Below are positions 1 through 17,929 of a stretch of DNA of 17,929 bases, in pieces; the stretch's first letter is position 1, and each line of letters starts with the position of its first letter. Below the pieces are notes generated by a model. It was not told the DNA's origin. It worked only from the letters and a program-made list of their open reading frames with translations, and did not search any database. This DNA comes from Chlamydiota bacterium. Its GTDB lineage: Bacteria > Auribacterota > JACPWU01. The DNA lies in NCBI GenBank assembly GCA_016196885.1, contig JACPWU010000065.1:1-17929 (forward strand). Direction: 5' to 3'. Both the position numbers and the translations under genes were made by a program.

Positions 1-3000
1 CTGATCAAAGAAAACCTCCTTAGTTCGAACTAAGCCCATCGCTTCAATCACTTCGTGATCTGCCTCTGGAAATAGGATGTGCGCAGTTTCATGCACAATT
101 GTGGCCTCATCCAGCAGCTCTACCTGAAAGAATATTTCCTTGCCCACAGGGTCCGTGAAGCCAACCGCGATTGTGGGTAATCGCATGGCCTCCTGTAGTA
201 GCATGACGAGGAAGAGAGATACCCCTAAACTAAAAATCACGACCTCAAAAATCGCCCATAGCCTTCTCTTTGTCTCTACCAGGCCAAACACGCCAGCCAC
301 CATCAGGAGTACCGAACACACCATAGCATACAGAAAAGAAGATCCGTGGAAGAGTAAGTTGAGCACGGTGAGTGGAAAGACGTTATGCAAGTGATGAATT
401 TCTTCCGGTGAAAGGCTGGGTTTCACGCGTCGTACCAGCAACGCTTGTTCTTTAACGATCATCTCCACTTGTTTATCGCCAAACCCCCGTCCGACGAGTT
501 CTTCAGTAATCTGTTGCTCCTGACTTAGGGAACCTCGCCCATCCATGCCCTTTATCCCTGTGTTGACCATGAGGCCACCAAGTGCAATACCAGAGAACAA
601 AGGGAGCATGAGCAGTCTGCTTCGAACGCGATGCCATCCCCCATTACCCACGGTGTTAGTTGGGGTCATTAAAGAAACTTCTCCGGTTTCTTTAAGCCGC
701 ATTAAGGATCTAATTTTATTTCGCGGCGAATCCGGCAGACTTTGCCAGAAGGCATAAATCCCTAGAAGAGCGAATGTCCCCAAAACAGCTCCCCATATCA
801 TATTGGAAGATCCGAAAAGCCCTAGCACGCCCCGACTAAGCTCGACCGCCCCAGCCTGATGGGATGCCAAAAGAGCAATCGCCGCGCCCGCCGCTAAAAA
901 TAAGGCCGTGATAAACTCTGTCCCTCCTGAACCTTCTTCACCGAGCGTCCTCGCGCTCCCCGATGCCCCATCAACCACCTGCAAAGTCATGACTTGATCT
1001 TCATCGGGCGCTGACAGTGAAACGGGGCCCTTATCATTATATTCTTTCTCAAAGCGGTAAAAAAAGCCTGGATTTAAAATAGTATTGCCTATCCGCAAAT
1101 TATCGTTCGTCAGCCTTTCCATCTTTAAATCGTAGGCGCCAGGATCAAATTCTGTATATCTATCCAGCGGCACATCTGAAATAAACAATACCCGGCTGCC
1201 ATCTTCACACACTTTTTGCGCCTTTACAGGCCCCTGATAAAAACATTTGTGGGGTTGAAAAGAAAAACTGGTGCTCCAAAAAACATCCATGCCGCGGCTC
1301 AAATACTTTTCTGCTGTTGCATCGGTATCATGGGCATCTCCAATGTAATAAATAATTGCATGGGTTATTCCATCCATTTTAAAGCGAATCAAAGACTTAA
1401 CGCTATCTTGTGGCCTCTCCCTTAAGATACTTCTTTTTGCGCTATAGGGCAGTCTTATTCTTTCTCCACTCATACGATCTAGATACTCCAGAACTCCTCC
1501 TCCTTCACTCCCAATATCCTGATGTTTGTAAAAGACTTTTTCGGTTCCATCATTTAACGTATAAATCAATCCACGCCATTGTGTAGATTCGTATAAAAGA
1601 AATGACCGTTCTGTAACAAAAGGTATTTCCAGGTCCTGAATAAAGCCTGATCTCTCCAGATACTTCATTTTTTCGATTAAGCCATAAGGCCAATCCGCAT
1701 CCTCGCTTACATAGACATGCTGGCTGGGGATCCCCAATGCTTTAGCGACTAAAATGAGGCTAAGATCCTCCCCTGCCGCGGGATAATAAAACCTTACAAA
1801 ACCGTGATTTTGCAATTCCGGAAGGCTGTCAAAAATTTTACGAGCCACTCCTTGGTAGTCCAGTATGGAATTATTTGCTCTGCCGAGCAAATCCGGACTA
1901 AAAGAGCTGGGTTTCTCTGTGTAAGGACTTACAAAATTTTTCTGCGCAGCCCTCAATAATTCAAAAAAGAACAAAGAATTTCTTGTATCAATCACTGTCT
2001 CCAATGTTTCCAGGATATGCTCTATTAAGACGCCTTCAGGTAATATATGAAGGACAGCTTTGACATCCTGAATCGCCAACTCCCTTGCTTCAAAAAGCTC
2101 CTGCAGCATACTGTGCGTAATTCCCACACCCAAGAGGATTTGCAGAATCTCCTTTTTCTTGCTGTGGTTTTGAGCCAGCTTTTCAAAAAAGATCCGATTA
2201 ATCCCGATAGCATCACCCCTCCTCTCAAAAAGTTCATTTGATTGATCAAGAGATACAAGTGTCACAACCGGCGGCCACTGGACAGGCGGATTTTTTAAGC
2301 TGATATCCCTCGCCTCAAGTCCTTTTTTGATTAACGTCATGAGTTCCTGATCCGAGGCAATAACTCCGCTATCTTTCAACTGTTGAATTAATTCTTCCGA
2401 AACAGAAAATCGTGTTGAATGATATGGCAGCAAAGCATTCCCGTCATTCAGTCTTAAATCCTCGAATTGTATTCCATGATTGACAAGCATCGAAACAGCA
2501 TCTTGTGAATGATCCTTTTCATGCAACGGTGCAAACGAGACCGATTCCGGGAGTTCACCGATTCTAGAAAATTCATCTTGTCCCAAAAATTTCCCTGCAT
2601 CTTGAGGGTGCAAATAGCTTTCAAAAAATTCTCTCACGACCTGGGATAGATCCACGTTATCCGGATTTTCAATTGCAATAAATTCGCTGAATAGGTCATC
2701 ATAATCAAATTTAATCCCTTTACTTGCTAAAAATTCCTTCAGCCTTCGGTGCCAGTCATTATGAAGGTTTGCAGGCAGGGTTTCCCCTATCTGGTTTAAC
2801 TCTTTAACAAAGTCATTTCCACCACCTGCTATGCTCTGCAACTGAATCAGTTGTTGCAGCCGCGCGGGAAGATATTGGACCAGATCAAACCGGACAAGGA
2901 GGTTGTTGATAAAGTGGATGCCAATGGGTGCGATAAGGCTGAATAATCCAATGAGGGCGAGATCCGCAACGATAGCCGCTGTGATGGTTTGTGCGGGAAC

Positions 3001-6000
3001 AAGAACAATCAACGCACCAATGATAAATGGCACTGCCGCAAACCATCCCATCGCCCTTCCAAAGTTGAGATGGGCACGGTATTCGACATTCGCTTTGCTC
3101 AGGATGACGTCCTGAGTCAGATTGCCACGGCCTCCTTCGGCAAGCTCTGGCTCCCTCGCAATGACGCCTTGATGTTTCACCCACGCCCCATAATGCGTAT
3201 CAGCAAATTTTCTGGCCTGGTATTCGATGACAAGCGGCATCAGCGCGATGGCAAGAATTCCTCCAGGCAGGACCAGAGCCGGAGCAAGGCTTGATATGCT
3301 GAAAACACCCACCATCAGAGCCCCAATCCCCGCCAGCGTCAGTCCCCTAAAAACCACTTCTTCCCATTGATCTACAGCGCTCAATACCACATTCGCCGCT
3401 GGCTCCGGCAAATACCGCCTGATAAATTCATAGAGCTTGCTCTTATCTAAAATGGATTGCGGTGTCCCCTCATCATTCCAAAAATAAAGCCCTTCCCCAT
3501 GCGCCAGGGGAAATAAAATTGCGCCCAGAGCTAGGCCGATGGCTCGGCCTGACATCAAATCCAAGCCCAGAGTAAGATGAAGTAGCCAAGCAAGCCCTTC
3601 CATTAAAATACCAGTAAATCCAATCTCCTCCCCCCCACTCCATTTCGCTTTCTTTTCATCGGGAACCCCAAACCGATCGAGAAGGCGATAAAAGAAACGC
3701 GTGAGACCAAGAGGGTTTTCACTGTCACTACTTGTTTCTTTGATCTCTAAAGCATGCGACCCGAAATTTGGATTATCTTTGACAAAAAAGTTCCCAGAAG
3801 TAGTTTGGTTTCCAGGAAAGCGTCGATCGGTTTGAATGGGCTCCCCATCTTTCAGACTTTGGAGTCTGATAAAGCGCTCAACGCTTCTGGGTTCATAGTC
3901 TGACGGAGACTTCAGGGAATTTGCCGGAATATGTTGTGGATCGGCCTGGGCAACCATCGACAAACCCATTGAAAATAAGACATTTTCTACTTGTTTTAAG
4001 AGGGCTTGCTGAAGTCCTTGACTTTGGTATCCAGGGGCAAGATAAATAAAATTAGACCCCACAAAAGGAAGCCCATTTTGATCAATACCGAACCAGCATT
4101 TGAGCCAGCCAACTTGTTTCCCACCCCTCGATTCTGTACTCATTTGAAAGAAAAAGGTAGTTGCATCTGTAATCCAGCGATGAGCATTTCTATCATAAAT
4201 ACCATTGCCAAAAGCATTACCCACCTTAGGGTCCGATGTATTACAACAGTGAGCACCATCTGAAAATCTCAAAATTTCAAAAAGATCCCGTTTATCTACA
4301 TAATCTAAATAGACAACAGATGAAATTTCTTGCGCGACAGAAGTCTGTGATGAAAAATTTGAAAAACTTGCTATCAAATCTCCTGCTGTTTCATCGAAGC
4401 TTGCTTTCAAAACTCTCTCATCCATACCAAATTTTTTGGCAAGGTCAGAAAGAAAAGTTCTAAGAGCCTCTTCTGGGGTTATTCCCTTACGTTGCGCACG
4501 ATGTTCCAGAGCGCGAATGACTGTCTCAATGCCCCTTTTGGCGCTTAAGATATCCCAATTTTCGAGCCATGTTTCTTTATTTTTAAGATCGAGTGAATCT
4601 TTTTTGTTTTGAAAGAAAGCCTTGTAATGAGGATTGTCTCTAAAGAAATAACCCCAGCTTTTTGCAGCATCTTTATTCCATTTGATTAAGAGTCCGCCCT
4701 GGAATAATCGTTCGTCAAAATCCCGTATTTTCTCAAACATACCTTGATCACCCACCTGATGGGCCTGGGAAACAATTGCTTCAACCTCCTCTTTCCTCTG
4801 GGAAATTCCTTCAGATCCTTGCTTTTCTAATCGTGCAAGCTCCTTCGAAATAAAGCGAATCATGCTGCTCAATTTAAGAAGATTTGATAAGTTGGCAGAA
4901 GAAGTTTGAAAGCTTTTCTGTGCCTGTTCCCTCATCCCTTCCTGACCCTGATCTTGAGAAATCAAACTATCAATGCGTTGAGGAATAAACCTTCCCTCTC
5001 CATCTAAAAAGGCAGAATTAGTAGGCAGAGAAGGGCGTCCCTTTAACAGAAAATCCATCATCTGGCGAGCGTCCATTTCAGGAACGCCTGCCTTTACAAA
5101 CGCTGATCTGAGGGTGACGTTGACGACCGATGTGTCTTCCAAATCTAAACTTTGAGAAGCCTTCTGAATAATGGCTTTAAATCGGTCATAACTGATAGGG
5201 CTAACCCCCGAATATGAAAAGGGAGAAGGGCGCAAGCAATAATAGGCCAACATGAGATGTTCATCCTGGACAAGTGCTCTTACCATGACCCGATAATCTC
5301 TTAAAGCATCTAATGCCGTTAACTTTTGCTGACCTTCTTTAATCTCTGCAATCGTCATACTTGCGTTACTGACCTTCTCCAACAAAATCCATGGAGGGAC
5401 GATGCTTCCTAATTCTTGATGTGCCGCAGTGAGAATGGGCAATGAATCTTCTTTAATATTAAGATACGCTTCGTCGAGAATTCCTGCTCGTGCCAAACCG
5501 CCGATCACTTCTATTCTTAAACCAGGGTCTATATTAGATTGATAAATAAATGGGTACAGGGCTGACAGACTATGACTTCCTAAAATTGCTAGAATAATCA
5601 ATCTTTCTTGATCGCCCACATCCACATAAAGCTGATCTCGTTTAGAAACACGCGACAGCACAGACTGTGCAACGCCACTCAAATAACTCTGAGCATCATT
5701 GAACCCCGCATGAGTCAGCCAACACATGATCTTTAAAGCCTTTTTAAAATCATCATCTGGACGCTTCCAACGTTTCATTTCACCGCAAAGATAAGCAACA
5801 TCTGTCCGATCTACTTTTCCTTGATCCATGCTGCGAATTTTGACAATTCTGGCTCTCTGGGAAAGGGTCAGACTCTCTTGTCTCATCATGCGATAACACT
5901 GATCTGGATTTCCAAGAATCTCTTCTAAGGAAAATATACCCGCACTCTTCAGTCGACTTAAAACCTCTGTGTTTTCAGGTTTTAAAGGTTCCGAGAAATC

Positions 6001-9000
6001 AGTTAAAAGTCTTGATAACATGATTTGATCATGAAAATAGGAGGTCACGGCATCATGATGCGAAACAAGAGTTTCTACAAGCCTGGCCCAGGCCACTCGC
6101 ATTTCTAAATCTTGATCTGTAAGTCCTCGCTTTACAAGGCTCAAAAAATCATCATCGACCTCTTCCCTTGTCACAAATCCTTTGCTGACCATCACCTCAA
6201 GACTACGAATCACTTTGGAACGAACTGAAGAGTCAATATCACTTTTTACAAGCCCTACAAATCGACGAAAACCATTCTTTCGCTCTAAAACCTCACCTCC
6301 TAAGGCTCCCTTCTCAATCAAAATCCCTAAAGCAATGGCATTGCTTGAAAAACTTTTTCTGGAATAGTGGATCTCGTAAGGTTCTAAATTAGAAAATAAA
6401 TTATCTAAAGGAAGATGCTTTTCTACAAATCTTGCATTCCATACCCCAACTTCTACCAAGATCCCAATCATTTCTGCCGTTTCTTCGTATAGTATTTTCA
6501 AGTCCTTGTTGATCAGCAGCCTCGCAATATTATTCCACAGTTTCTGCGGATCCAAGGAGCGGATCTCCTCTTCATATTGACCTGTCTCTTTTAAGGCTTT
6601 TAGAACGCTCGCACACAACTGAGCATTTCGACCCACACTAATCCGATCTCCTAAAACATTCATTAAATCGTATGCGAGAACTTTCTTTTTTGAGATCCAA
6701 CGACTTCGGATAAGAATTTCAAGGTATTTAAGAATGGAAGTTTCGTTATAATTATGGTGTTGAAGAGAAGAGAGCCAATGGGGTAAAGAAATTTTTCCAA
6801 CAACTTTTTTTCGAGGTATCCATTCTGTATCTACCAACAAGGCAAGCACCTTCAGGGCATTCAAAACATCCTCGCCTTTCCTTCCTTCTCTCAAATAAGG
6901 GATCGCCGTGCTTGCGATTTTATCCATAGCCCCTTTAAATTTTTCATCCACCAAACCCATCTCTATTAATAACCTTAAACTTTTTATAGGAGTTTCTCCC
7001 TCAAATCCAATAAGATAACGAGATATATTCCTCATCCATTGATCTATAGGAAGCTCTTTCCTTAAGATATCTGCGCTAACCCACCCTTTGTCCATCATCA
7101 ATTTTAAACACTCGAGAATATTGAAAATATAATTTCCCCTAGCAAATTGAGCTGACTGCATGAGTGATCTGAGAACTCTTTCTCGATCCTTTTCATGTCC
7201 TTCAAAGAAATCTCCTTGGAGTAAAAACCTTGCTGAATCAGGAGCAAAAAAGAAATAGTCTAATTTTTTTATAGTTTCGTTTAATCCATGAAAAAAATAT
7301 TCTGCTCTCTCTAAATTTTGATCGAGCATCTGAGAAATAGCAGTAGCTGTTTCAGACTGTGATTGAGCTCCCACCATCCCCGCAGGCCATTCAAACTTTC
7401 TGGCAAACCAGGTGCTGTAGAGGCTGTGCAAAATGCCTGCCGTGAGAATCACAAGAGTGCTGGACACAATTACAGGTAAACTCCAAATCAAAGAGATTGC
7501 CACAATCGACAAAAGAGCCACAAGCCGAATCACCAGCCCTGCCCCAGAAAGTTTTCGTAAGGCCTTCCAAAAATCTCGTCCTAATGCCTGTCTTTTTTTA
7601 AATTCGAACTTTCCATTCTCCCAAAAATAAAACCCCTCCCCATGCGCCAGTGGAAACAGAATACCGCTCAGGCCCAAACCCATCACCCGTCCTAATGTCA
7701 GATCCCAACCCCAAGCCAGATGAAGCGCCCAAGCCAAACCCTCAATCAAAACCCCCGTAAATCCAATTTCCTCCACCCCACTCCATTTGGCTTTCTGTTC
7801 ATCAGGAACCCCAAATCGATCGAGAAGACGATAAAACCAAGGCATGAGGCCAAGCGCTCGACCTTGTGAAGGCATCCTAGACGATAGATTTGCTGCATGC
7901 ACAGTTCCACGAACGAGGGGGTTCAGGCCTGCTGGAAGAGAACGAGCACTGTCTGTGGATGGCGGCGGCTTTATTCCCAAATGCCTTCCCAAATCACCCA
8001 GGGGCAGTGTTGGGCGTGTCATCTTGAGAAGACCCAGCCGCGTCACAACGTCCTTCATTTCATCTTCATTGGGCTCGGTGTCAAATAAAACAAATCTTCT
8101 ATAATGTTTGACATCTTCTGTCCCAATGCCGACGAAGATCATGTTCACGCCATATTCTTTTTCAAAATTCTCAACTTTTTTTTCTAATTGTCTCCATTGT
8201 TCTGGAGTGGGAGGGTCGCCAAAGGCTCTTTCCCCTCCATCGGTGAACACAATTTCCACTTTGTTCTTTTGCTTCTTTTTATCCGCATATTTTTGTTTTA
8301 AGCCTTCAATTAAATGCAGGGTATTAATCCCGCCGCCGTCCTGCATGTTCCACATTCTATTGGGACCGGTTCTCACCTTCTCAACATCCCCCGTTTCGTT
8401 GAATCCAAACACAGGATGATAATCTTCCCCGATCACACCGAGTGCGTGTCCGACACTTCTATGGCCCTGTCCCGCCTTTCGCATGAGGGCAGAAAAGAAT
8501 TTCGTAAGTTCGGTGAAGGATCGAACAAGGTTATCTCTCATGGTGATACTTCCGCTGCCATCCACGGTTATTCCCATCCATAGTTCAGGCTCTGCATCTT
8601 CATAGGCGGTTGATTTAATGACGCGGGACATTCCCAGCTGCCACCTTCGCATATCAATTTTTCCAATCCCACTTCTTTTATAAACGTCCTCACCCTGAGG
8701 CTCTGAGGCAAAGAGGGCCATGAGCCGTTTTGCAAATCCTCCCAGTCTCTTGCCGTATTCTTCAAGCCAATCCCCGCTCACTATTTGGCGTCTCCCCGCT
8801 GAAGGCGCCTCTCCTTTAGATTCGCCTGGTTTCCCTCCTGTAGCCTTCCCTTCTTTGTCATGCTCTATTTCTTTGGCGTGGCCCTCACTTCCGCTTTCTT
8901 CCTCTATTTCTATGTTTTGCTCAATTTGCCTCCCAGATGCTTCGTCTAAATCCTCCATTTCCACATTTGGACCTTGCGCCAATCCGTCTGCAATTTCATG

Positions 9001-12000
9001 GATGCTATTTCCTGTTCCACGACCCCCTGCCATCTTGTATCTTCCGCCCTTAGCGCTTGATAAATCGTAATCACCTTGAAATTTCTTTTTCCAGGCCTCT
9101 TGATACATGGCAATCGCGATATTTCTGACGGTTTCATCATTTAATTTAAGTCGCTCAATCGCGTTTAAAATAGCTTGGGCGCGATCATCTTCAAATAGGT
9201 CTGTGATTTCTTCTATGCGTTTTAATTGATCATCCTCTGCATTTTCTCGCTTAAGCATTCTTAAATAGCCGTTGAGGATTCCTTTGGCGGCCTGGCTGTA
9301 ATAGGATTTTTCGTCTTTGTCGGTCTGAAGCTGTCTTGCCAACTCATTTTTTAAATATTCTTTTGGGTTAAGTCCAAAAATGAGGGGGAATAACATGGAG
9401 AAAAGTTCTATGTTGTCATGGAGTTTAATCACCTCTTCTCCATGAAGCCTCATTTGATCTATGAAATGTCCCAGTTCATGAGAGCCAACTTGTGAAAAAG
9501 CGCTTTTCTCGTTCATACCGCTTAAGGCGCTTTTGTAAGCCAGAACGTAATCTCCTCCCTTGAATACTCCCCGTGCCGCTTCTTCCTCGGCAAAGGGGTG
9601 CTTTTCCACCAAATAGGCGTGAAGTGGGAGTTGGGCTTTGTATTTTTCAGCGTTGATTCCCAATTTCTGGAGATCTGATTCTTCGAGTGCGAGGGTTTCT
9701 AAAATAGGTTCGCTGTGAATAAGAAGATAAAGTTTATTCTCCTTTTCAAGGGCAAAACTGAATATAAACCGTTTAAGCGATTCATTTTTAAGGACGATGC
9801 TTCGCAGTTGATTCATGGCTAATTCAATTCCTGTCTCACTCACTTTTTCTCCTTTGAATAAGGCATGAAGATTTTTTGTCCATGCTTCAAGTGCGAAATC
9901 AAGTCCCTGTGTCAGGGTTTCGATTTCTTGCTGCAATGATTCATCCATTGTCCCAGCGCTCAGGGCGAGGAGATAATCGCGTAATACATGATCCAGAAAA
10001 TGTTGGTATTTTTGTAGGGGACTAGAAAGGGTTTGAATCCGATCCAGCTCTGTTCTTATTTTTGAAAGGCTGTATTTAAAATTCAGGTCTTTTTTTATTT
10101 TGATGGGCGGTGCTCTTTCTTTTTCTGACTTTTGAATCGTTCTTTCTACGGTGCCTTCCAAGCGAGGGTAGGTTTTGTAGGTCATTTCGCCACTTGAGGC
10201 AGGTTTCAACTCTTCTATCGGCAAGGCGTTATCAGAATGATATGTCATCGCAGTTCTCACTTGCGCGAAGGATTCAGATCGGTCCAGCTCTTTCATTCGG
10301 CGTGTGTGGAGCCCCATCAGGATTTCCGCGAGATCCTCCCTCTTCACCCGTGGAGATTCTAAATAGCGGTGCAGAACGGGAACCCATATTTTATGGGCTG
10401 ATTCAAGGAGGTCTGGCGAAAAGGTTGAACGACCTTCATAAGTACCCGCGGGATTACCTGCTAAGATGAGAATCACCTCTGGATCAAGCTCTACTTCAAA
10501 TCGAGCACCAGCCAGATAATAGGTGAATTGTCGTCTGCCCTCAAACAGGGGTCTGAGGCAGTGCATGATTTCAGGGGCGGTGTTAGCCTCGTCTATGAAT
10601 AGAATTTTTCTTTGGGTGTGACTCGTCATTCCTTCAGCATTGTAGTATTGACCATTGATTTTACCCAGTTGGCTAAAGAAGCCCTTCATTTGTAATGAGA
10701 GTTGACGCTGGGAGCCCCTCCCTTGCCCCGCTTCCATTCGAGCGATGATGCTGTCCGGTTCCATTCCTTTGTACGCAGTGAGTGTGTGGACAGGGATGCC
10801 TGTGATGGCGCCGAGATTTCGGACAAGGGTGCTTTTGGACCCGCCTGTTTCACCCATGAGGACAATAGGTCGCGGTAAAATGATACGGCCCTGTGTGTCC
10901 CGAATGCGCCGTGTGGCCCACATCACACTTTCCATCACTTCGTTAATCACTCCGTAATGTTTGAGGTAATCCATTTTTGGTACTTCTTCGGGAGGCAAGG
11001 CCGTTTCATTCGGCAAAAGAGGCATTCCCCCGATGGACTCAATGAGGCTTAATTCTAATGTGAGATGATCCGCATCTTCCCGGACTTTTAAGCCTCCAGA
11101 AAGCTCCATTTCTCCGCCTTGATAGAGATAGCGGTTAAACGGGGTCTGAATCGTGTATCCACTTTGCGTCTTTTGTATTTGAATTCCATTGGCAAATGTT
11201 TTCCCGTTTTCCAGCTCTGATTTGGTTATTGGAATCGTCACCGTTTTTCTTTTCACATCTCTTAACTCGTTTTCTAATGCTTGAATAGTTTGAGCGTTGA
11301 TCCCTTCATATCGAAATACTTCTGTGATGAGACGTTCTAAATAAATGGATCTATCAGAGGGTTTGCCGACTTCATTCATGCCTTGTCCGTAAAGGCGAAG
11401 GATGTTGCACAGCACCGTTCTGACAGAATCTATTTCGGTGACGCCACTTGTCATCTGGCGCTTTTTATCCCATAGCACCAGCTCGGCCAAATGTCGAGCA
11501 TCCTTGACGCTGTATCCATATCGAGTGTTCAATTTCTGGCGTTCGATGTTGAGATGGAGATCATGAAGTCCCATGTCCAAATACCACGCCAGTTTTGAGG
11601 ATTGAACGATGAGCGTTTTTTCTTCTTCGGTGAGACCCTCATGATATCGATCAAGGTAGCTCTCCATTTCATCCTCTTCTGTGACAGCGCTCAGGGCAAT
11701 TTTTTGGAATCGGTTGTAAAAGGGTGATGAAAATTGTTTGGTACGAGTGGATGCGGTTGAGGCAACGATGTGAATATGCGAAGGTAAACGGTAATTTTTT
11801 TGCTCAATGCGGATCTCTCCTGTATTTAAAAAATCGTTAAGCCGTTCAAGCTCTTCGTCTCTCAAAAGTTCGAGGCTAGAGAGATAAAGGATTTTGTCCG
11901 GTTCTCCTTGAGAAGGGGGCTTTCCTTCTTCAACCAGATGTTCGCCCAAGAAGCCCAATAAAGTCGCTTCTTCATCGGTTCCTACGGCCAGGCCGTTTTC

Positions 12001-15000
12001 ATCCATAGGACCCTGTTTTAGGCCTCTTTCACCGACCAGTTCCGTGCTGCTTGTAAAAGAAGTGCCATCAAAGACCGCGATTTCCATCCCTGTGACACGA
12101 CCTAATTCTTTGACGAGATCGAGGGGGTCGCTCCCTTGTTCGGCAATGAGTAGGCTGTGAATGGGCTGTGTGTCGCTTTGCTGGCCTGTGCTTCTGGCCA
12201 AGGCCTTCAAGGCCCCCATTTGGCTTTTCACCGGCACAAAATAAGGGGCGTCTTCTCTCTCTTGAACTGAAGAAACATATTTGGGTAATCGGACATTTCC
12301 AATATCCACATGGGTTCCACCGTCTATGATTTTTGTATCATTCTGCCACTCCTGAATATAATTTTTAAATCCCGGGAAAAACTTTTCTACAATTTCTATG
12401 GCGCCTTTTGCGTCCTCTTCATTGAATTGATAAATGTAATTGAGCAATATGCCTTCATAGAGATTCCCGCCCTGCTCGATCAAGCTCGCGATGCGAATAA
12501 GTTCTCGGGGACTGACCCCATATTGATAAGTGTAAAGCTCGTTAAACTCGCTTAATTTAAATTGTTTGACCTCGTCTAATAGAGGCCCTCGATAGGTTTT
12601 ACGGAAGGTCTCGTCCATAATCCATTTCATGGCGATGTGAAGATTAATGAGCGGATTTATTTGGGGCTCGAGCGATCGGGTTCCTTCCCCTGAATAATAC
12701 CGGATCAGCCGTTCATAACTTGCTTGGCTCCATTGATCGGTGATCCAGATTTTTTTTGCGTTCTGTTCGAGGCTTAAGGGCAGTTCTTGACGACTTTGGG
12801 TGATGTCTGACGGGTTATAGGTTGCTATAACTTTGAATAGGGGATGGATTTTAACGGTGCGTTGTATGGGGATCCCTTGATGATAGAGCCCTAGATCAAG
12901 CGTTTCACTCCGTATAATTTGCATGAGAAAGCCCATGAGCTGTATCGCCTGATGGGAGATATTCCCTTCATCCAGACAGAAGACGCCTCCCTTTTCTATA
13001 TAATCTAAAAATTCTGTGAGAAATTTATTTTGATCGTCTCTCGTTGCCGTTAGAATCCATCGCTCATTACGCTGCTCTAATTTGCCAATGAGTTCACCTA
13101 GGTCAATGTCTCGATACATCGAGAGCTTGCGGAATTTTAAATTTAGCCTTCTTGCCAGGTCTTCTGCCAATGCGGTCTTTCCTCCCCCCGGAGGGCCTTC
13201 CAGCAAAATGACATTGCGATCATTTGCGAAACCCATTAGCAGGGCCTCCATGGCGCTGATATTTTCCTGGACCTCGGCCAAGTATTTATTTTTCTGGGCT
13301 GCTTCAAGCGACTGATATTCTGTTGGATATTGCGTGCCATTTATTTTTAAATAAATCACTCCCTCATGTTCGATGTATTTTATTTCTTCAATCGCTTCCG
13401 GAATAAGGTCCTGACGGTATTCGTCTCTTAAGCCGATACCCAATGTGTTATAGGCTATTCTTTTCATTTTTTCAGCGCTTAAAGTTTCCCCCTCTGACGC
13501 CTTCTTTAATGTGTTCACATATTCTTCAAAATCACGCCAGCTAAGTCGGGTATGGCGGTAATGCCCATCCTCTATTTCTTGCCCATATCTTTCCCAAATC
13601 TTAAGGGCATATTCTATGGCGGAGTCTTGAAGGGTCCCCTCAGGTAAATGCTCCGCGATGTAGTGTCTAATCCAGGCATCACAGATTTCGCTCGTGAGAT
13701 GGACTCCCGAGTAGCGCGACAACTCTGCCGCACTCATGGGCAATTTGTCATTTAAAGAAGGCTCTCTGGGTGTGTAAATAAGTCCAACAATTCTAAAATT
13801 TTTGGGCAGTCTCAAATAGCGCCCTTCCTCCAGCAATGGATTTTCTGCATACTGCCTCGCTAAAGCGGGGGTGAGTTCAAGGCGTCCTTCTTGTAACGCA
13901 CGGTTTAAACCGACAGCCGTATCTGCATTCATTTGTTGGAGGTTGTCTATCACCAGGTATTGCGTTTGCTCGGAACTCGCTTGGGCCAGTTCGACAATTT
14001 TAAGCACCGTTCCCGCATAATTGCGAATTTCTCCCGTTTCACCTACACTCACACCCCCCGTCATTCCCTCTAGTTCTGTGAATTCACTCGCGGTGATGTA
14101 ATGCCTCTGGACCTTTTCATTTTTCTTTTCAATGTGGCGTTTCAAGAGTTCAAGCCCGTCTGCCGCGTCGCTCCCCTGAATGAGGATAGGACCCAGCCTA
14201 GCGTCTAAAATCAAATCAAACGCATTTTCGTTACTATAATTTTGCGTGTTAATTTGATGCTTCGCAAAAATAGGGCTTAGCCCTTGACGCACCTCAATTT
14301 CCATCCACATTCCCCACAATGTGATAAGCGCAGCACGTTGATAGGCCTCACCTATCGATTCTCCCTTTTCCCTTAAATGGCGAGTGAGTTTAATGGTTCG
14401 AATCGCGTCTCTTATCGTTAAGACCTGATAGAAGCTTGTAGTCTTCCCTGTCTGGAGCGCTTTTTGTAGGTCGTAATAGAGCTGGGCTAGTTTTTTGCTG
14501 AATAAAGCCCTCCTTTCATCATCAAGTTCAGGATCGTGGACTTTAAATAATTGTGCCATCAAGCGCTCAAGTTCGGACTTGATTTTGTCTTGATAGAGGG
14601 GGTCTTCCTCACCATAGTCATAACCGACCCAGAAATTTTTAGAGTTTCTGGTCAATGCTAAAGGAAGGGGGCCCCGGGCTCGAAAATCGTCGGGATTGAT
14701 ATCTGCGATGTAAAGATTATCGGGTGAAATTGTATTCGTGTAGAAAGGGTCGCCTGCGGGATCGATTTTTGCAATTTCAGGCATTTGCCGCCTCTCATCG
14801 TTTCGGGCAATAGGTGTTAACCAATAGCCCAGGGCCTGCCTTTGAACGGTGTTGAGCTCACTTGTGTGAATGACATGCCCCCCCGATCGTTCCGCCTCCA
14901 AATACGGGGTGTCATTCACAACTTGCATGCCTTCTAATCCTGGCTCTAACCCACCGCGAAATTCCTCAAGCAGGGTCTTGCGATGAGCGGTGTAACCGGT

Positions 15001-17929
15001 GACGCCATAACCCAATATTTTTCCTAACACTTGCGCAAGTTCCGTCTTTCCTTCTCCGCTAGCACCTTCAAGGACGGTGAAAAGGCTTTCCTCCCTTGAC
15101 CCGCTTCCTCTGACATAAATTTGCCTTACCCATTGCCCGATCAGTCTTTTATCCTGTTCCCTCAACACATATCCATAAAGATTTAAAATCATCTCTTCCA
15201 CCCTTTCTTGCGAATGCCCAGCAGCATACCCTAAGAACTCATTCCCAATCTTCACAGGGACTCCATCTGCAATCAGTTGACTGCCTCCTATCCTTAACTC
15301 GCTCGTTTCATAGGGATCAGGCACTTCAGAACCTGGATAGAATAAATTCTGAAACACTTCCCTGAAATTCCTTCGGTCCTTCTCAAATCTAAATCGAAGA
15401 ATCATGTAGCGATAGAGTTCTTCAGCCAAGATGGGAGATGGTTCAAGTTGCGGATTTTCTGCACAGCGGCTTTTTGCGGTGAGGGCAATGTTAATGAGGT
15501 CTTGAGGATACATTCGAAATGAGCTCTGTTGCCATTCTTGATGCTGGATCTGGGTGTAAAATTGGCTTAATTTTTTTGCGGATGTTTCCTCTAGATTTAT
15601 TTTGTTCTTTAACATAGCCTCCATGTCTTTTTCACTCAGCTCACCGGCCTTGTGTTTAATCACGCGATTTAAGAATGCCTCATCTTCTAATTTGCCCCCT
15701 TCGGCCATCGTGAAAATGATGTGTAAATTCTTCGGGATCCGGTACCTCACTCCTGTTTTGGCGATGAAAAGCTCTTTCTCCCATAAAATGGGATTAAATT
15801 CCACACGCAAAGAACCTTCAGCCGCTTCAATGTTGTCCAGGACAAGGTAAATGGGTTTCCCGCCATTAGAGTCAGCCTGAGTGATGAGTCTGGGTAGTAT
15901 TCCTTCGCAAGGCTTCATTTGTCCTGCTTCATCTGGTAAGTCCATTCCAAAAAGTTCAGCACGATCACTGTAACCCGATAATGATGCTCGGTAGGCCGTG
16001 CCCCCGCTTTCTTGGGCCAGCTCAGCCAATGCAACTTTCACACTGTCGGCACTCCCATCCGCTTCCACAACAAGACTTGCCTCGCCCATTTCGCAGGCCC
16101 TTTTAAGGCTCCAATACATCGCTTCATAAGATTCCACTTGATAAAATCGGTTGGAATCTGTTCGCTCAGCTTCAAAAGATCTCATCCAGTATTGATGCAG
16201 TCTCTCTTTTAAATTTTCACCCGATTCTCTATCGCCCAACGCAAGTTTTATAAATAAATCCCTGTGTTCTCTCATGAAACGCTCTAAAATATTCTCTAGC
16301 CAGTTCTTTTCTTCGCCAAAGAGACCGCCGTAAACCGTGTAGACCGTCATCACAAATTTGCCCATGACATCCTTGGCTGCAATCGTTTCATCCTCGCCTA
16401 CGGATAAGTCAGATAAGTAGCGATGAATGAATTCTCTGTGCAACTTGATTAGGTCTCTTACGCTGGTGATCCAGAATGGATCATCCGCATGATAAAGGGT
16501 TGCATATTCCCTTATCTCTTGATCCAGATCCATACTCATGTCAACAATCTCTCGAATATCCCTTTCTGATAAATAAGGCTCTTTCCCGTTTAATTGGTCT
16601 AATATCATTTTGACAATGCTGCTCTTATGAAAATCTTCGAAAGGGACACCTTCCATGAGAAGGCCATATTTATGCCATAAGGCATTATAGATGAGGCTTA
16701 ATCGCTCAGGATTTGTCTCTCTTTCCAGCGCTTCAAATGAAAGTTTCTTTAAGTCCAGACCCTGAATAGCACGTATCCATTGTTGAATCGTTTCATTCGC
16801 ATCTTGAGACTCTGATAGTTTATTCACCATCCAGGGGGTCAGCTGAATTTGGTTTTGGGTCAAAGCTTGAATGATGGGGTGGTCTATAAGAGATGCATAA
16901 CCATCAATCGACGATTGAATGAGAAGATCTGAAGGCTTTCCTAACGACATTATAAGGAGCCCTATTTGATGGCAGAATTGAGCAAATTTTGTCCCGCGGT
17001 TATAATCGTTTAACGACGATTTCTGAACACTCAAAAATTCTTTGATACAACTTTTAAAAGTAAGAACATATAGCTTAGCTACCTCTATATCTGTAATATA
17101 CGGACCGCTATGGATGAGGGCAGTTAATATATCCTTTACCCCGCCTCCGGCCTGCTTGATCCAAGCAGCCACATCCCCTGCCTTCTTTAACACATCTTTT
17201 GCATTGCCTTCTGTCACCTTTGGGCTTTTAAAGAGTTCCGTGATTGCGCTAAACACTGCCTCAATCTCAGGGACTCCGCCTCCTGCCCACTTGATCAACC
17301 GAGCCACATCCCCTGCCTTCTCTAACACATCTTTTGCGTTGTCTTTTGTTACCTTTGGGCTTTTAAATAGCTTGGTCACACCCGATGATATTGCATCGAA
17401 TTCTTCGTCGCTTAAATATCTATTTGAAAATCTAAATTCATTCAGCCAATGAGTTAAAATCGTTTCTTTCGTGTCCTTTCCTTTTCCTCCCACCATCCCC
17501 GCCGGGAAGCTTGTGAATCTCCGTGCGAATCTTGTGCTGTAAAGACTATGCAAAATCCCTGCCGTGAGAATTACAGTACCCATAGATACAATCGCGATCA
17601 TGACTGTCGATGGCAAGTTTAAAGATAGAAGTGTTACGGTAGAGGGCAAATCGCTAGGGATTAAAGGTGTGAATAAAGGGAGCAGCGCAGCAATCCGAAT
17701 CACCAACCCTGTCCCAGAAAGTTTTGCTAAAGCCTTCCAAAAATCTCGTCCTTTAAAATCTTTTCTTTCCTTAAACTCAAGTTGTCCATCCTTCCAAAAA
17801 TAAAGCCCTTCCCAATGAGCCAGTGGAAACAGAATACCGCTCAAGCCCAAAGCCATCACCCGTCCTAATGTCAGATCCCAACCCCAAGCCAGATGAAGCG
17901 CCCAAGCCAAACCCTCAATCAAAACTCCC
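1..17929 (-). CDS. Internal fragment of one giant ORF (5,976 complete codons, no start or stop in the window). It encodes a multi-cassette, multi-pass membrane protein containing a midasin/dynein-like hexa-AAA+ plus MIDAS/VWA unit.
   Basis: Triplet-by-triplet scan of the minus frame (codons on + coordinates 3k-2..3k) found zero stop codons over 17,928 nt. The other five frames are broken (longest ORF in the supplied track is 136 aa). In-frame motifs occur along the whole length: Walker A GPPGGGKT (13174-13197), GASGEGKT (15043-15066) and GETGGSKS (10831-10854); Walker B VFCLDE (12967-12984) and ILFIDE (10588-10605); MIDAS DGSGS (8548-8562); HELGH (9466-9480); HETAH (79-93). Confidence 0.93.
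49..921 (-). other. TM cluster (~6 predicted helices) ending in an HExxH motif, possibly a membrane-embedded zinc metalloprotease-like domain. It continues beyond the window.
   Basis: Hydrophobic segments: FITALFLAAGAAIALLAS, MIWGAVLGTFALLGIYAFW, LLMLPLFSGIALGGLMV, FPLTVLNLLFHGSSFLYAMVCSVLLMVAGVFGLV and LWAIFEVVIFSLGVSLFLVMLL. Then DEATIVHETAHILFPEADHEVIEAMGL, with HETAH at 79-93. Confidence 0.45.
960..2894 (-). other. Soluble region of about 640 aa with no motif I can assign
   Basis: Continuous in-frame translation, for example ...NDWHRRLKEFLASKGIKFDYDDLFSEF...HGFVRFYYPAAGEDLSLILVAKALGIPSQHVYVSEDADWPYG...ITHAIIYYIGDAHDTD... It has a globular-looking composition and no long hydrophobic segments. 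Confidence 0.4.
2895..3360 (-). other. Additional TM-helix cluster following module copy 3
   Basis: Hydrophobic runs: GLTLAGIGALMVGVFSISSLAPALVLPGGILAIALMPLVI and GWFAAVPFIIGALIVLVPAQTITAAIVADLALIGLFSLIAPIGIHFI. Confidence 0.6.
3478..3711 (-). other. Conserved TM module, copy 3 (first hairpin only is conserved)
   Basis: LGLTRFFYRLLDRFGVPDEKKAKWSGGEEIGFTGILMEGLAWLLHLTLGLDLMSGRAIGLALGAILFPLAHGEGLYFW. The last 74 aa (RFFYRLL...YFW) match copy 2 at 56 of 74 positions by hand alignment. Confidence 0.8.
3955..4260 (-). other. Possible GNAT-like (acyl-CoA N-acyltransferase) segment
   Basis: ...QVGWLKCWFGIDQNGLPFVGSNFIYLAPGYQSQGLQQALLKQVENVLFSMGL resembles GNAT motif A (hhV.P.yqgkGhG..Ll..h). The Q/RxxGxG/A signature is imperfect (QSQGLQ). 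Motif-level resemblance only. Confidence 0.3.
5300..7100 (-). other. Degenerate alpha-helical (HEAT/ARM-like) repeat region
   Basis: A recurring motif [LI]xxLh[ED]xG[hydrophobic]xxxxh appears every ~40-60 aa: LKLMMDKGWVSADIL, LRLLIEMGLVDEKF, LKVLALLVDTEWI, LKYLEILIRSRWI, VLKALKETGQY, IGILVEVGVWNARF, LGILIEKGALGGEVL, IRSLEVMVSKGFVTREEV, LSRLKSAGIFSLEEIL, IGGLARAGILDEAYL. Confidence 0.45.
7366..7854 (-). other. Conserved TM module, copy 2 (complete, ~4 predicted TM helices)
   Basis: LGLMPWFYRLLDRFGVPDEQKAKWSGVEEIGFTGVLIEGLAWALHLAWGWDLTLGRVMGLGLSGILFPLAHGEGFYFWENGKFEFKKRQALGRDFWKALRKLSGAGLVIRLVALLSIVAISLIWSLPVIVSSTLVILTAGILHSLYSTWFARKFEWPAGMVGA. Positions 7648-7756 match 17821-17929 at 106 of 109 nt (hand count). 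Confidence 0.8.
8040..8590 (-). other. von Willebrand factor A (VWA) domain with MIDAS motif
   Basis: ELWMGITVDGSGSITMRDN (DxSxS at 8548-8562), MQDGGGINTLHLIEGL (conserved Thr position), KVEIVFTDGGE (TDG Asp) and VNMIFVGIGTEDV. These have the order and spacing expected of a VWA Rossmann-like fold. Confidence 0.8.
8790..8964 (-). other. Acidic low-complexity stretch (about 30% D/E by hand count)
   Basis: VEMEDLDEASGRQIEQNIEIEEESGSEGHAKEIEHDKEGKATGGKPGESKGEAPSAG, located between the AAA+ region/linker and the VWA domain. Confidence 0.7.
9300..9600 (-). other. HExxH (zincin-like) motif region inside the post-ring linker
   Basis: GVFKGGDYVLAYKSALSGMNEKSAFSQVGSHELGHFIDQMRLHGEEVIKLHDNIELFSMLFPLIFGL, with HELGH at 9466-9480 and a further His 7 residues after the second His. 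Confidence 0.45.
10370..10870 (-). other. AAA+ module 6 (canonical Walker A and Walker B)
   Basis: PIVLMGETGGSKSTLVRNLG (Walker A at 10831-10854; the GETG.GK[ST] form is the midasin/RNF213-style P-loop). RKILFIDEAN (Walker B at 10588-10605), then LRPLFEGRRQFTYYLAGARFEVELDPEVILILAGNPAG. Confidence 0.85.
11690..12160 (-). other. AAA+ module 5 (degenerate P-loop)
   Basis: SLLIAEQGSDPLDLVKELG (12121-12156) sits at the P-loop position. Walker-B-like KILYLSSLELL follows, then LNDFLNTGEIRIEQKNYRLPSHIHIVASTAS...FYNRFQKIAL. Confidence 0.55.
12740..13215 (-). other. AAA+ module 4 (canonical Walker A and Walker B, likely hydrolysis-competent)
   Basis: VILLEGPPGGGKTALAEDLARRLN (Walker A at 13174-13197), GGVFCLDEGN (Walker B at 12967-12984), then IPIQRTVKIHPLFKVIATYNPSD. 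This is a typical MoxR/AAA_5 layout. Confidence 0.85.
13740..14200 (-). other. AAA+ module 3 (degenerate P-loop)
   Basis: PILIQGSDAADGLELL (14155-14187) sits where a P-loop is expected. Walker-B-like QYLVIDNLQQ (about 13939-13959) follows, then NRALQEGRLEL...RYLRLPKNFRIVGLIYTP. Confidence 0.55.
14620..15100 (-). other. AAA+ module 2 (intact Walker A, non-canonical Walker B)
   Basis: TVLEGASGEGKTELAQVLG (Walker A at 15043-15066). The Walker B position reads GHVIHTSELN. Downstream LYIADINPDDFRARGPLPLALTRN resembles the AAA_5 'atmNP...L..Al.nR' segment. Confidence 0.7.
15600..16110 (-). other. AAA+ module 1 (AAA_5/midasin-like fold signature, degenerate P-loop)
   Basis: Pseudo-P-loop LVVEADGSADSVK (EADGSADS at 16042-16065) lacks the GK[ST] residues. 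Walker-B-like IYLVLDN (LVLDN at 15832-15846) is followed by EFNPILWEKELFIAKTGVRYRIPKNLHIIFTM. That matches the AAA_5 pattern (LDEin...L..ll....l.ip..ge.i....nFrlfatmN). Confidence 0.6.
17105..17400 (-). repeat. In-frame tandem duplication, 2 copies of a 45-49-aa unit (135-147 nt period)
   Basis: Copy A: FDAISSGVTKLFKSPKVTKDNAKDVLEKAGDVARLIKWAGGGV. Copy B: FSAITELFKSPKVTEGNAKDVLKKAGDVAAWIKQAGGGV. The nucleotide core ccgcctcc...cacatcccctgccttct.taacacatcttttgc...cctttgggctttt is seen at 17141 onward and again at 17276 onward. Confidence 0.85.
17485..17929 (-). other. Conserved TM module, copy 1, N-terminally truncated by the window edge (predicted ~4 TM helices)
   Basis: Translation: GVLIEGLAWALHLAWGWDLTLGRVMALGLSGILFPLAHWEGLYFW..GRDFWKALAKLSGTGLVIRIAALLPLF..VMIAIVSMGTVILTAGILHSLYSTRFARRFTSFPAGMVGG. 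These are hydrophobic stretches separated by K/R-rich loops. The module is paralogous to 7366-7854 and 3478-3711. Confidence 0.7.

Follow-up and report, generated by a model that had tools for sequence, protein, structure and literature searches.

A giant bacterial gene fragment predicted to encode six tandem AAA modules, a zinc-site domain and a MIDAS domain between membrane modules

Dynein and midasin have been described as the proteins in which all six AAA+ modules are carried by one chain (PMC4047620). This six-in-one-chain arrangement has been dated to early eukaryotic evolution, with a MoxR-like ancestor (PMC3495828). Giant genes, for their part, have been documented in Omnitrophota and the PVC group of bacteria (bioRxiv 10.1101/2023.11.21.568195; PMC11573180). 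Here, a stretch of 17,929 nucleotides (nt) is analyzed, hereafter the window, which is contig JACPWU010000065.1 of a metagenome-assembled genome (MAG; GCA_016196885.1) labelled Chlamydiota. A single stop-free reading frame crosses it, and the predicted product combines six tandem AAA modules with a domain carrying a zinc-site motif, an acidic patch, a VWA domain with a complete MIDAS, and repeated membrane modules. As a giant gene, the window is ordinary for its bacterial group, but its architecture is not.

Read on the minus strand, the window is open from end to end (1..17928). None of its 5,976 codons, laid over forward positions 1-3, 4-6 and so on, is a stop, where base composition predicts about 362 (log10 P(0) ~ -162). 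The remaining five frames hold 276, 284, 317, 385 and 392 stops, and the longest open run among them is 141 codons. Residue i of the product corresponds to forward coordinates 17929-3i to 17931-3i; all features described below are encoded on the minus strand and are given in forward coordinates. These counts bear out the original prediction, which had described a stop-free frame spanning the window and the absence of TTA, CTA and TCA at forward positions congruent to 1 mod 3. When the six-frame stop map is redone without requiring terminal stops, only this one minus frame is stop-free. The open reading frame (ORF) lister indeed misses it, as had been remarked: ORFs open at both ends are dropped, and the longest one listed is 136 amino acids (aa).

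Start and stop had both been placed outside the window, and the GenBank coding sequence for the same 5,976-aa product likewise lacks both termini. Residue 1 lies midway through a membrane module, other copies of which begin at least 48 residues earlier. Because the upper end sits inside this repeated module, the gene extends past both window ends, in agreement with the proposed gene interior of more than 5,976 codons; complete relatives measure 5,074-7,593 aa. The window is a whole MAG contig, and both gene ends were lost at assembly breaks. The gene could not be extended from the viral, genome and metagenome contig collections, in which an exact 51-mer from the window has no match. Giant prokaryotic genes are delimited here by a single uninterrupted frame of more than 15 kb and more than 5,000 aa, and the frame surpasses both values. 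Taken together, the window is very probably the interior fragment of a real giant gene. The frame is not undiscovered, since its product stands in GenBank as MBI3267371.1, 'MAG: AAA family ATPase, partial [Chlamydiae bacterium]' (17,929-nt contig), and NCBI annotation as a partial AAA family ATPase exists in two MAGs.

The conserved core of the product opens with a helical part (aa ~380-600, 16129..16791), with BLAST and phmmer matches beginning at aa 180-440, and continues with six AAA modules that fall into two classes. The even class comprises module 2 (aa 935-1110, 14599..15126), with the Walker A motif GASGEGKT and an AAA_5 match at E 2.7e-7; module 4 (aa 1555-1735, 12724..13266), with Walker A GPPGGGKT, Walker B LDEGN, an AAA_5 match at E 1.7e-11 and an alpha/beta AAA fold in the structural model; and module 6 (aa 2335-2520, 10369..10926), with Walker A GETGGSKS, Walker B IDEAN and an AAA_5 match at E 3.2e-9. 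Pfam places these three matches at aa 952-1057, 1574-1718 and 2355-2507, and a weak one at aa 1264-1388. In modules 4 and 6, none of the Walker A and B residues varies among nine sequences, down to 26% identity. The odd class is degenerate and has no Walker A. It consists of module 1 (aa 600-770, 15619..16131), also seen by self-BLAST; module 3 (aa 1235-1405, 13714..14226), whose AAA_5 score lies below the cut-off (E 0.0023); and module 5 (aa 1910-2085, 11674..12201), which has no Pfam match and is modelled as an AAA-like alpha/beta module that aligns within dynein rings.

The two classes emerge from a per-module profile-profile comparison with hhalign, using alignments of the window and 13-17 relatives. 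Modules 1, 3 and 5 match one another at E 7e-9 to 2e-17 (module 1 to modules 3 and 5 at E 2e-17 and 1e-10), whereas modules 2, 4 and 6 match one another at E ~1e-16; across the classes, only modules 5 and 6 match, at E 6e-6. By motif and profile, the module chain thus reads as (degenerate + active) x3, an order that suggests a triplicated pair. The six modules are predicted to close into a ring of the dynein/midasin type.

Downstream of module 6 lies a conserved linker domain (aa ~2610-2990, 8959..10101) that is confidently modelled and carries a gluzincin-type zinc-site motif, HELGH followed by 19 residues and a Glu (aa 2817-2841, 9406-9480). The Glu stands 20 residues past the second His of the HExxH motif, and thermolysin-type gluzincins have the same HExxH-to-Glu spacing. 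In an alignment of aa 2600-3345 with eight relatives, residues H2817, E2818, G2820, H2821, N2839 and E2841 are invariant in all nine sequences, down to 25% identity. The same alignment shows invariance of the MIDAS residues D3123, S3125, S3127, T3203 and T3229-D-G in the VWA domain (7969..8586; Pfam VWA E 1e-7), which together make up a complete MIDAS (D3123-x-S-x-S, T3203, T3229-D-G). Between the two domains is an acidic patch with 15 D/E in 51 residues (aa 2985-3035, 8824..8976), predicted to be disordered, with a predicted local distance difference test score (pLDDT) below 50. A structure search with the model of the HExxH-VWA segment is dominated by its VWA part, which matches integrin I-domains and the MIDAS domains of MDN1/Rea1 about equally. 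A profile of this segment has no significant sequence match in the Protein Data Bank (PDB).

The HExxH domain also occurs outside giant proteins. Omnitrophota proteins of ~1,160 aa combine it with a C-terminal DUF58. On the complete Omnitrophota chromosome OY759724.1 (locus L018, 8948-13546), a 1,191-aa gene of this kind, HExxH with C-terminal DUF58, is followed 25 nt on by a MoxR gene. The MoxR protein is canonical, with AAA_3 and AAA_lid_2 at E 4e-63. The HExxH domain is thus linked to MoxR-class ATPases in two ways, as a gene neighbour here and by fusion in the giant core, and the gene pair resembles part of that core in unfused form.

A profile of modules 4-6 finds yeast and fission-yeast midasin in the PDB at E 3.7e-53 and 3e-40, and the next matches, NorQ, CobS and CbbQ, lie near E 1e-3 with ~20 bits. 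The longest midasin stretch covers ~400 columns and runs through a lid into the following module. A single-sequence PDB search of the core returns only a chance-level match to Lon, so that the profile is required. At the level of sequence profiles, the core appears nearer to midasin than to single-module MoxR proteins, though not dramatically so per domain. An AlphaFold model of aa 1500-2600 (pLDDT 75, predicted TM-score 0.76) places modules 4-6 in an arrangement that aligns with dynein motor domains over ~1,100 columns, at E ~1e-23 and a TM-score of ~0.5. As modelled, modules 4-6 would form half of a single-chain ring.

As judged from colinear alignment, the core belongs to a conserved protein family, mostly of Omnitrophota, that is so far uncharacterised. 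Its aa ~380-3,345 are colinear with proteins of 3,000-7,600 aa, at 24-40% identity over 2,650-3,170 residues by BLAST; the alignments, to more than 15 long proteins, start at aa 180, 380 or 670 and end at ~3,320-3,347. An exhaustive HMMER search, whose query was the core segment aa 2341-3540 only, gave 112 matches, among them a 5,976-aa entry that departs from the window translation at two residues. The window shares with this unnamed AAAx6-HExxH-VWA family a colinear core of ~2,700-3,000 aa, the invariant HExGH...N.E residues and the invariant MIDAS residues. The named core relatives are proteins of Omnitrophota MAGs and one Elusimicrobia protein. A one-genome-per-species scan recovered at least 30 loci of the core family, a lower bound since one peptide pattern was used: ~19 from Omnitrophota, 7 from Planctomycetia/Planctomycetales-labelled MAGs, 1 from Auribacterota and 1 labelled Actinomycetota. 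With that single pattern, no locus labelled Chlamydiota was found. The literature yielded no description of this bacterial family, within incomplete coverage, and there the overall layout of the core is otherwise on record only for eukaryotic midasin.

The complete relative genes of 5,074 and 7,593 aa both stand in bacterial contexts. That of 7,593 aa directly follows dnaA-dnaN-dciA-gyrB-gyrA (locus L002, 10001-42782; locus L003, 7676-40457). Another giant gene lies 280 nt beyond it; it encodes 5,048 aa and has faint TrmB/ABC1 matches only. The possibility that the window is a fusion of two such adjacent giant genes was considered and set aside, as its downstream half has no tblastn similarity to the 5,048-aa gene. 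Most relatives end 30-250 aa past the VWA domain, whereas the frame of the window runs ~2,600 aa further, through the second copy of a membrane module. The source MAG is labelled Chlamydiae/Chlamydiota by NCBI, and the core's named relatives belong to Omnitrophota, Elusimicrobia and Planctomycetes-labelled MAGs. For this taxonomic mismatch, either the core was transferred or the MAG label is loose.

The product has four clusters of hydrophobic helices with long soluble stretches between them. Three of the four clusters open with a shared module, in which an amphipathic leader (FYRLLDRFGVPDE.KAKWSG) precedes four hydrophobic segments, and the copies are 60-67% identical in protein. Copy 1 (aa 1-164, 17437..17928) is truncated by the contig edge and is without the leader and first helix; it has 60% aa identity to aa 3392-3537. 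Copy 2 (aa 3344-3540, 7309..7899) is complete, with leader and four helices. Copy 3 (aa 4725-4830, 3439..3756) consists of the leader and first two helices, with 64% aa and 78% DNA identity to the region of aa 3344-3438. It leads into a hydrophobic domain (2884..3381) with EEVVFRG (4856), FADTH (4908) and HFINN (5005), motifs that look canonical for CPBP proteases. The CPBP signature is EExxxR, FxxxH and HxxxN/D, each on a successive helix. On aa 4725-5030, Pfam Rce1-like/CPBP (PF02517) scores 22.3 bits against a cut-off of 22.4 (E 1.6e-4), and no PDB sequence matches this stretch. Modules 1 and 2 carry EEIGFTG, FPLAH and HSLYS in place of these motifs, with Rce1-like matches at E 0.09 (copy 2) or worse. 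CPBP-like motifs were also read by eye in hydrophobic regions of two relatives; they had no Pfam support and were dropped.

A fourth, more distant module copy (E 2e-15) lies in a 1,350-aa NAGPA-domain protein of the same two MAGs. In this 'phosphodiester glycosidase' (locus L004, 10001-14053), the module occupies aa 322-466, where it is preceded by an N-terminal region rich in S and L and followed by the enzyme domain. The 67-kb contig that encodes it also carries recA, alaS and mraZ. The copy has no Rce1-like/CPBP match in Pfam. Neither relatives of the membrane module in metagenome contigs nor a PDB sequence match were found. From these occurrences, the four-helix module appears to be an internal membrane anchor that this genome uses repeatedly. 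Eukaryotic or viral contamination is rejected, with core relatives amid bacterial housekeeping genes and the module recurring beside recA, alaS and mraZ. After module 1, a 33-aa helical unit is tandemly duplicated (17137..17370), with the pattern ..FKSPKVT.xNAKDVLxKAGDVA..IKxAGGGV.. at aa 187-219 and 232-264; at the DNA level, 17138-17235 resembles 17273-17370 with 86% identity.

Beyond module 2, aa 3540-5976 have no match in Pfam, NCBIfam, PHROGs, PADLOC or plasmids (the last by tblastn) except for weak GNAT and Rce1-like signals, and phmmer finds no relative of the downstream segments among 120 retrieved proteins. This half comprises a helical region with faint HTH_27/TrmB matches only (aa 3540-4200, 5329..7311); a weak GNAT-like stretch (aa 4586-4663, 3940..4173), with Acetyltransf_1 at E 6e-4 and 20.5 bits against a cut-off of 20.7; module copy 3 with its hydrophobic domain; a soluble region (aa 5030-5640, 1009..2841); and, by hydropathy, about six hydrophobic helices (aa 5665-5915, 184..936). 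A second HExxH motif, HETAH (aa 5946-5950, 79..93), follows the six-helix cluster at 26 residues from the edge, where the contig end truncates its domain.

The reading that these data favour, and which we regard as reasonably probable, is that the window is the interior of a giant gene whose product consists of multi-pass membrane-tethered cassettes, with a client-remodelling core made of a six-AAA ring, a zinc-site domain, an acidic patch and a MIDAS. Such a product would most likely be a membrane-tethered, ATP-driven remodelling or proteolytic machine. In the mechanism proposed, for which the chances are roughly even, the MIDAS site would catch a peptide or an acidic side chain of the client. 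Hydrolysis of ATP by modules 4 and 6, perhaps also by module 2, would then move the ring and linker, so that the client is pulled or unfolded; movement of the client via the MIDAS is suggested by analogy with midasin and MoxR-VWA systems. The client may in addition be cut at the zinc site. The cassettes on both sides of each membrane module would stay cytoplasmic, at the membrane, because the number of helices in each module is even. The data directly show the open frame, the family, the order of domains, the motif conservation and the resemblance in fold, whereas we infer that modules 1-3 complete the ring, that the protein is active as an ATPase and a protease, how it is oriented in the membrane and what kind of client it handles.

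Several observations weigh against this reading. Modules 1, 3 and 5 are without nucleotide-binding motifs and the structural model covers modules 4-6 only; a closed ring of six modules is therefore a prediction. The E-value of the midasin match largely sums repeated AAA stretches of 19-37 bits each, and the VWA domain is not specifically midasin-like. No homology of the HExxH domain to any known peptidase family was detected by Pfam scan or PDB profile search. For the downstream ~2,400 aa, none of the searches yielded a relative, the exhaustive one having covered the core segment only. An exact 73-nt repeat connects modules 1 and 2, and the divergent synonymous codon usage of the core calls for explanation.

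The last two points bear on whether the contig might be an assembly artefact, an in-frame join of two or more genes or organisms at the repeated modules, with a core from another genome than its flanks. Positions 17,691-17,929 are 88% identical in DNA to 7,521-7,756 and include an exact 73-mer (17853-17925 = 7680-7752), which stops 4 nt short of the upper edge of the contig; this end looks like an assembly break at a repeat. Among two-fold NNY codons, 39.4% end in C in the core and 22.1% in the rest of the same ORF (p 4e-10). The value in eight ordinary genes of the genome is 25.4%, from which the core differs (p 7e-8) and the flanks do not (p 0.18). Together with core relatives from Omnitrophota rather than Chlamydiota, these figures are what a chimera could produce. 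However, the codon island (7900-16791) switches at the core/module-2 boundary on one side, but at its N-terminal boundary there is no repeat, and a join between organisms would require them to have sequence in common at two junctions, whereas the module is found nowhere else. A second assembly also preserves the order. Its contig (GCA_016178005.1, JACOUD010000022.1; 17,928 nt) differs at 8 of 17,928 bases, 6 of them at third codon positions, and has the same two end points; its product, MBI1883138.1, bears the same record name and is 2 aa apart from the window translation. The warning in the original prediction that the repeated modules might mark a chimera is thus justified as far as the repeat goes, while the second assembly keeps the structure. 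Even with a wrong join at module 2, more than 2,500 open codons would remain on each side. An artefact is accordingly very improbable, and the codon island more likely reflects a foreign origin of the core, or preferred-codon selection in conserved domains. Seven of the eight differences between the assemblies are packed into 40 nt (1972-2011), within the soluble region of aa 5030-5640; they are mostly synonymous, with one R5316 to K change, and the cluster looks like a small recombination or strain-variant tract.

The gene may also be real and its product never one mature chain. As a polyprotein, it would be split by the membrane modules, possibly glutamic intramembrane proteases of the CPBP/Rce1 type, or by the HExxH domain, so that separate membrane-anchored proteins result. 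The modules do bound cassettes that are separate or otherwise combined proteins elsewhere, most relatives ending soon after the VWA domain, and a module is found inside the unrelated NAGPA protein of the same genome. The motifs of the EE, FxxxH and HxxxN-like type, the borderline Rce1-like score and a conserved P-x-G-M-V/A-G after the last helix of the modules are consistent with processing, and embedded peptidases have been proposed to process giant proteins of Omnitrophota (bioRxiv 10.1101/2023.11.21.568195). However, the modules cannot be assigned to CPBP with confidence: copies 1 and 2 reach only E >=0.09 and have the Arg of motif 1 and the Asn of motif 3 substituted, and the NAGPA-protein copy and the PDB search give no match. 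Processing of this kind is unlikely on balance. Still less can be said for a secreted or surface protein of the Omnitrophota 'Archaeovorin' or adhesin kind that would act extracellularly on the surfaces of prey or hosts. In its favour, Omnitrophota giant proteins are the nearest relatives, the Archaeovorin literature reports many transmembrane regions with AAA_5 among the domains, and VWA domains are common in adhesins. Yet Archaeovorins combine numerous transmembrane regions with a divergent SecA DEAD helicase domain, whereas the window has transmembrane clusters and no SecA_DEAD match, and it holds no dockerin, carbohydrate-active or signal-peptide features. Moreover, the conserved Walker A and B motifs imply ATP use and hence a cytoplasmic location, and four-helix modules would hold both flanks on one side of the membrane. 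An extracellular role is thus extremely improbable.

Among known systems, the core has its closest likeness in midasin (Rea1/MDN1), an AAA+ mechanoenzyme of eukaryotic ribosome biogenesis. In both, a single chain carries six consecutive AAA_5-type modules and, after them, a linker, an acidic stretch and a MIDAS/VWA domain with DxSxS; midasin is the best sequence match among solved structures, and its MIDAS fold is among the top structural matches. In contrast to the six P-loop modules of midasin, the core has (degenerate + active) x3, and in place of a helical linker of ~1,700 aa it has one of ~450 aa with the HExxH-E motif and an acidic patch of only ~50 aa. The MIDAS of midasin is C-terminal, whereas here the ORF continues 2,600 aa past the VWA domain. 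The window protein is further unlike midasin in being bacterial and, by inference, membrane-tethered, and the per-domain similarity is modest, at 19-37 bits. Midasin remodels pre-60S particles through clients with a UBL domain; to our knowledge, bacteria lack Rsa4 and Ytm1. The core is consequently filed as probably working like a midasin or MoxR-VWA machine, by analogy, and not as a midasin, because it departs from one in linker length, in the number of P-loops and in the position of the MIDAS.

The MoxR-VWA systems (RavA-ViaA, NorQ-NorD, CbbQ-CbbO, CobS-CobT, BchI-BchD and MoxR-DUF58 operons) bring together the same AAA_5/AAA_3 clade and a MIDAS-type VWA. In partners of the BchD type, too, a degenerate AAA is found together with an acidic linker and a VWA. 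These systems are homo- or hetero-hexamers of ~300-aa subunits with a separate VWA protein, whereas here six modules and the VWA share one chain, and their similarity to the core is weak (~20 bits for NorQ, CbbQ and CobS), as is that of CobT. The motor domains of cytoplasmic and axonemal dyneins are the top structural match and likewise form a single-chain ring with active and degenerate modules. Unlike dynein, the core is without a stalk, a microtubule-binding domain and a dynein linker, shares ~13% identity with it, and has a VWA/MIDAS, which dynein lacks. The giant proteins of Omnitrophota and the PVC group (West-Roberts et al. 2023; Seymour et al. 2023) resemble the window in that their ORFs are very long and interrupted by breaks in the assembly, their transmembrane regions numerous and their domains highly divergent; they differ in their hallmark SecA_DEAD, carbohydrate-active and dockerin domains and in that the host MAG of the window is labelled Chlamydiota. 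FtsH follows the same plan, in that an AAA+ ring tethered to the membrane works together with an HExxH zinc site. However, it belongs to another AAA clade, with one AAA per subunit, an M41 peptidase and no VWA, and no sequence similarity between FtsH and the window protein was detected.

Set beside these systems, a family that joins six tandem modules to an acidic patch and a MIDAS, occurs in 30 or more bacterial genomes at species level and follows the internal logic (inactive + active) x3 bears on how the six-in-one-chain plan arose. It is conceivable, although we hold the idea only tentatively, that a bacterial six-module ring with a MIDAS arose from a triplicated (degenerate + active) pair to which a zinc-protease-like domain was added. 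Such a ring, which in this organism would also be embedded between protease-like membrane modules in a polyprotein-like giant gene, would represent either an independent bacterial origin of the midasin/dynein body plan or a relative of its ancestor. In either case, a ring of six modules in one chain would no longer count as an invention of eukaryotes alone; convergence, transfer from eukaryotes and a surviving prokaryotic relative are the candidate origins. The invariant zinc-site motif between the predicted ring and the MIDAS also suggests a new kind of ATP-dependent machine that would capture, pull and cut its client.

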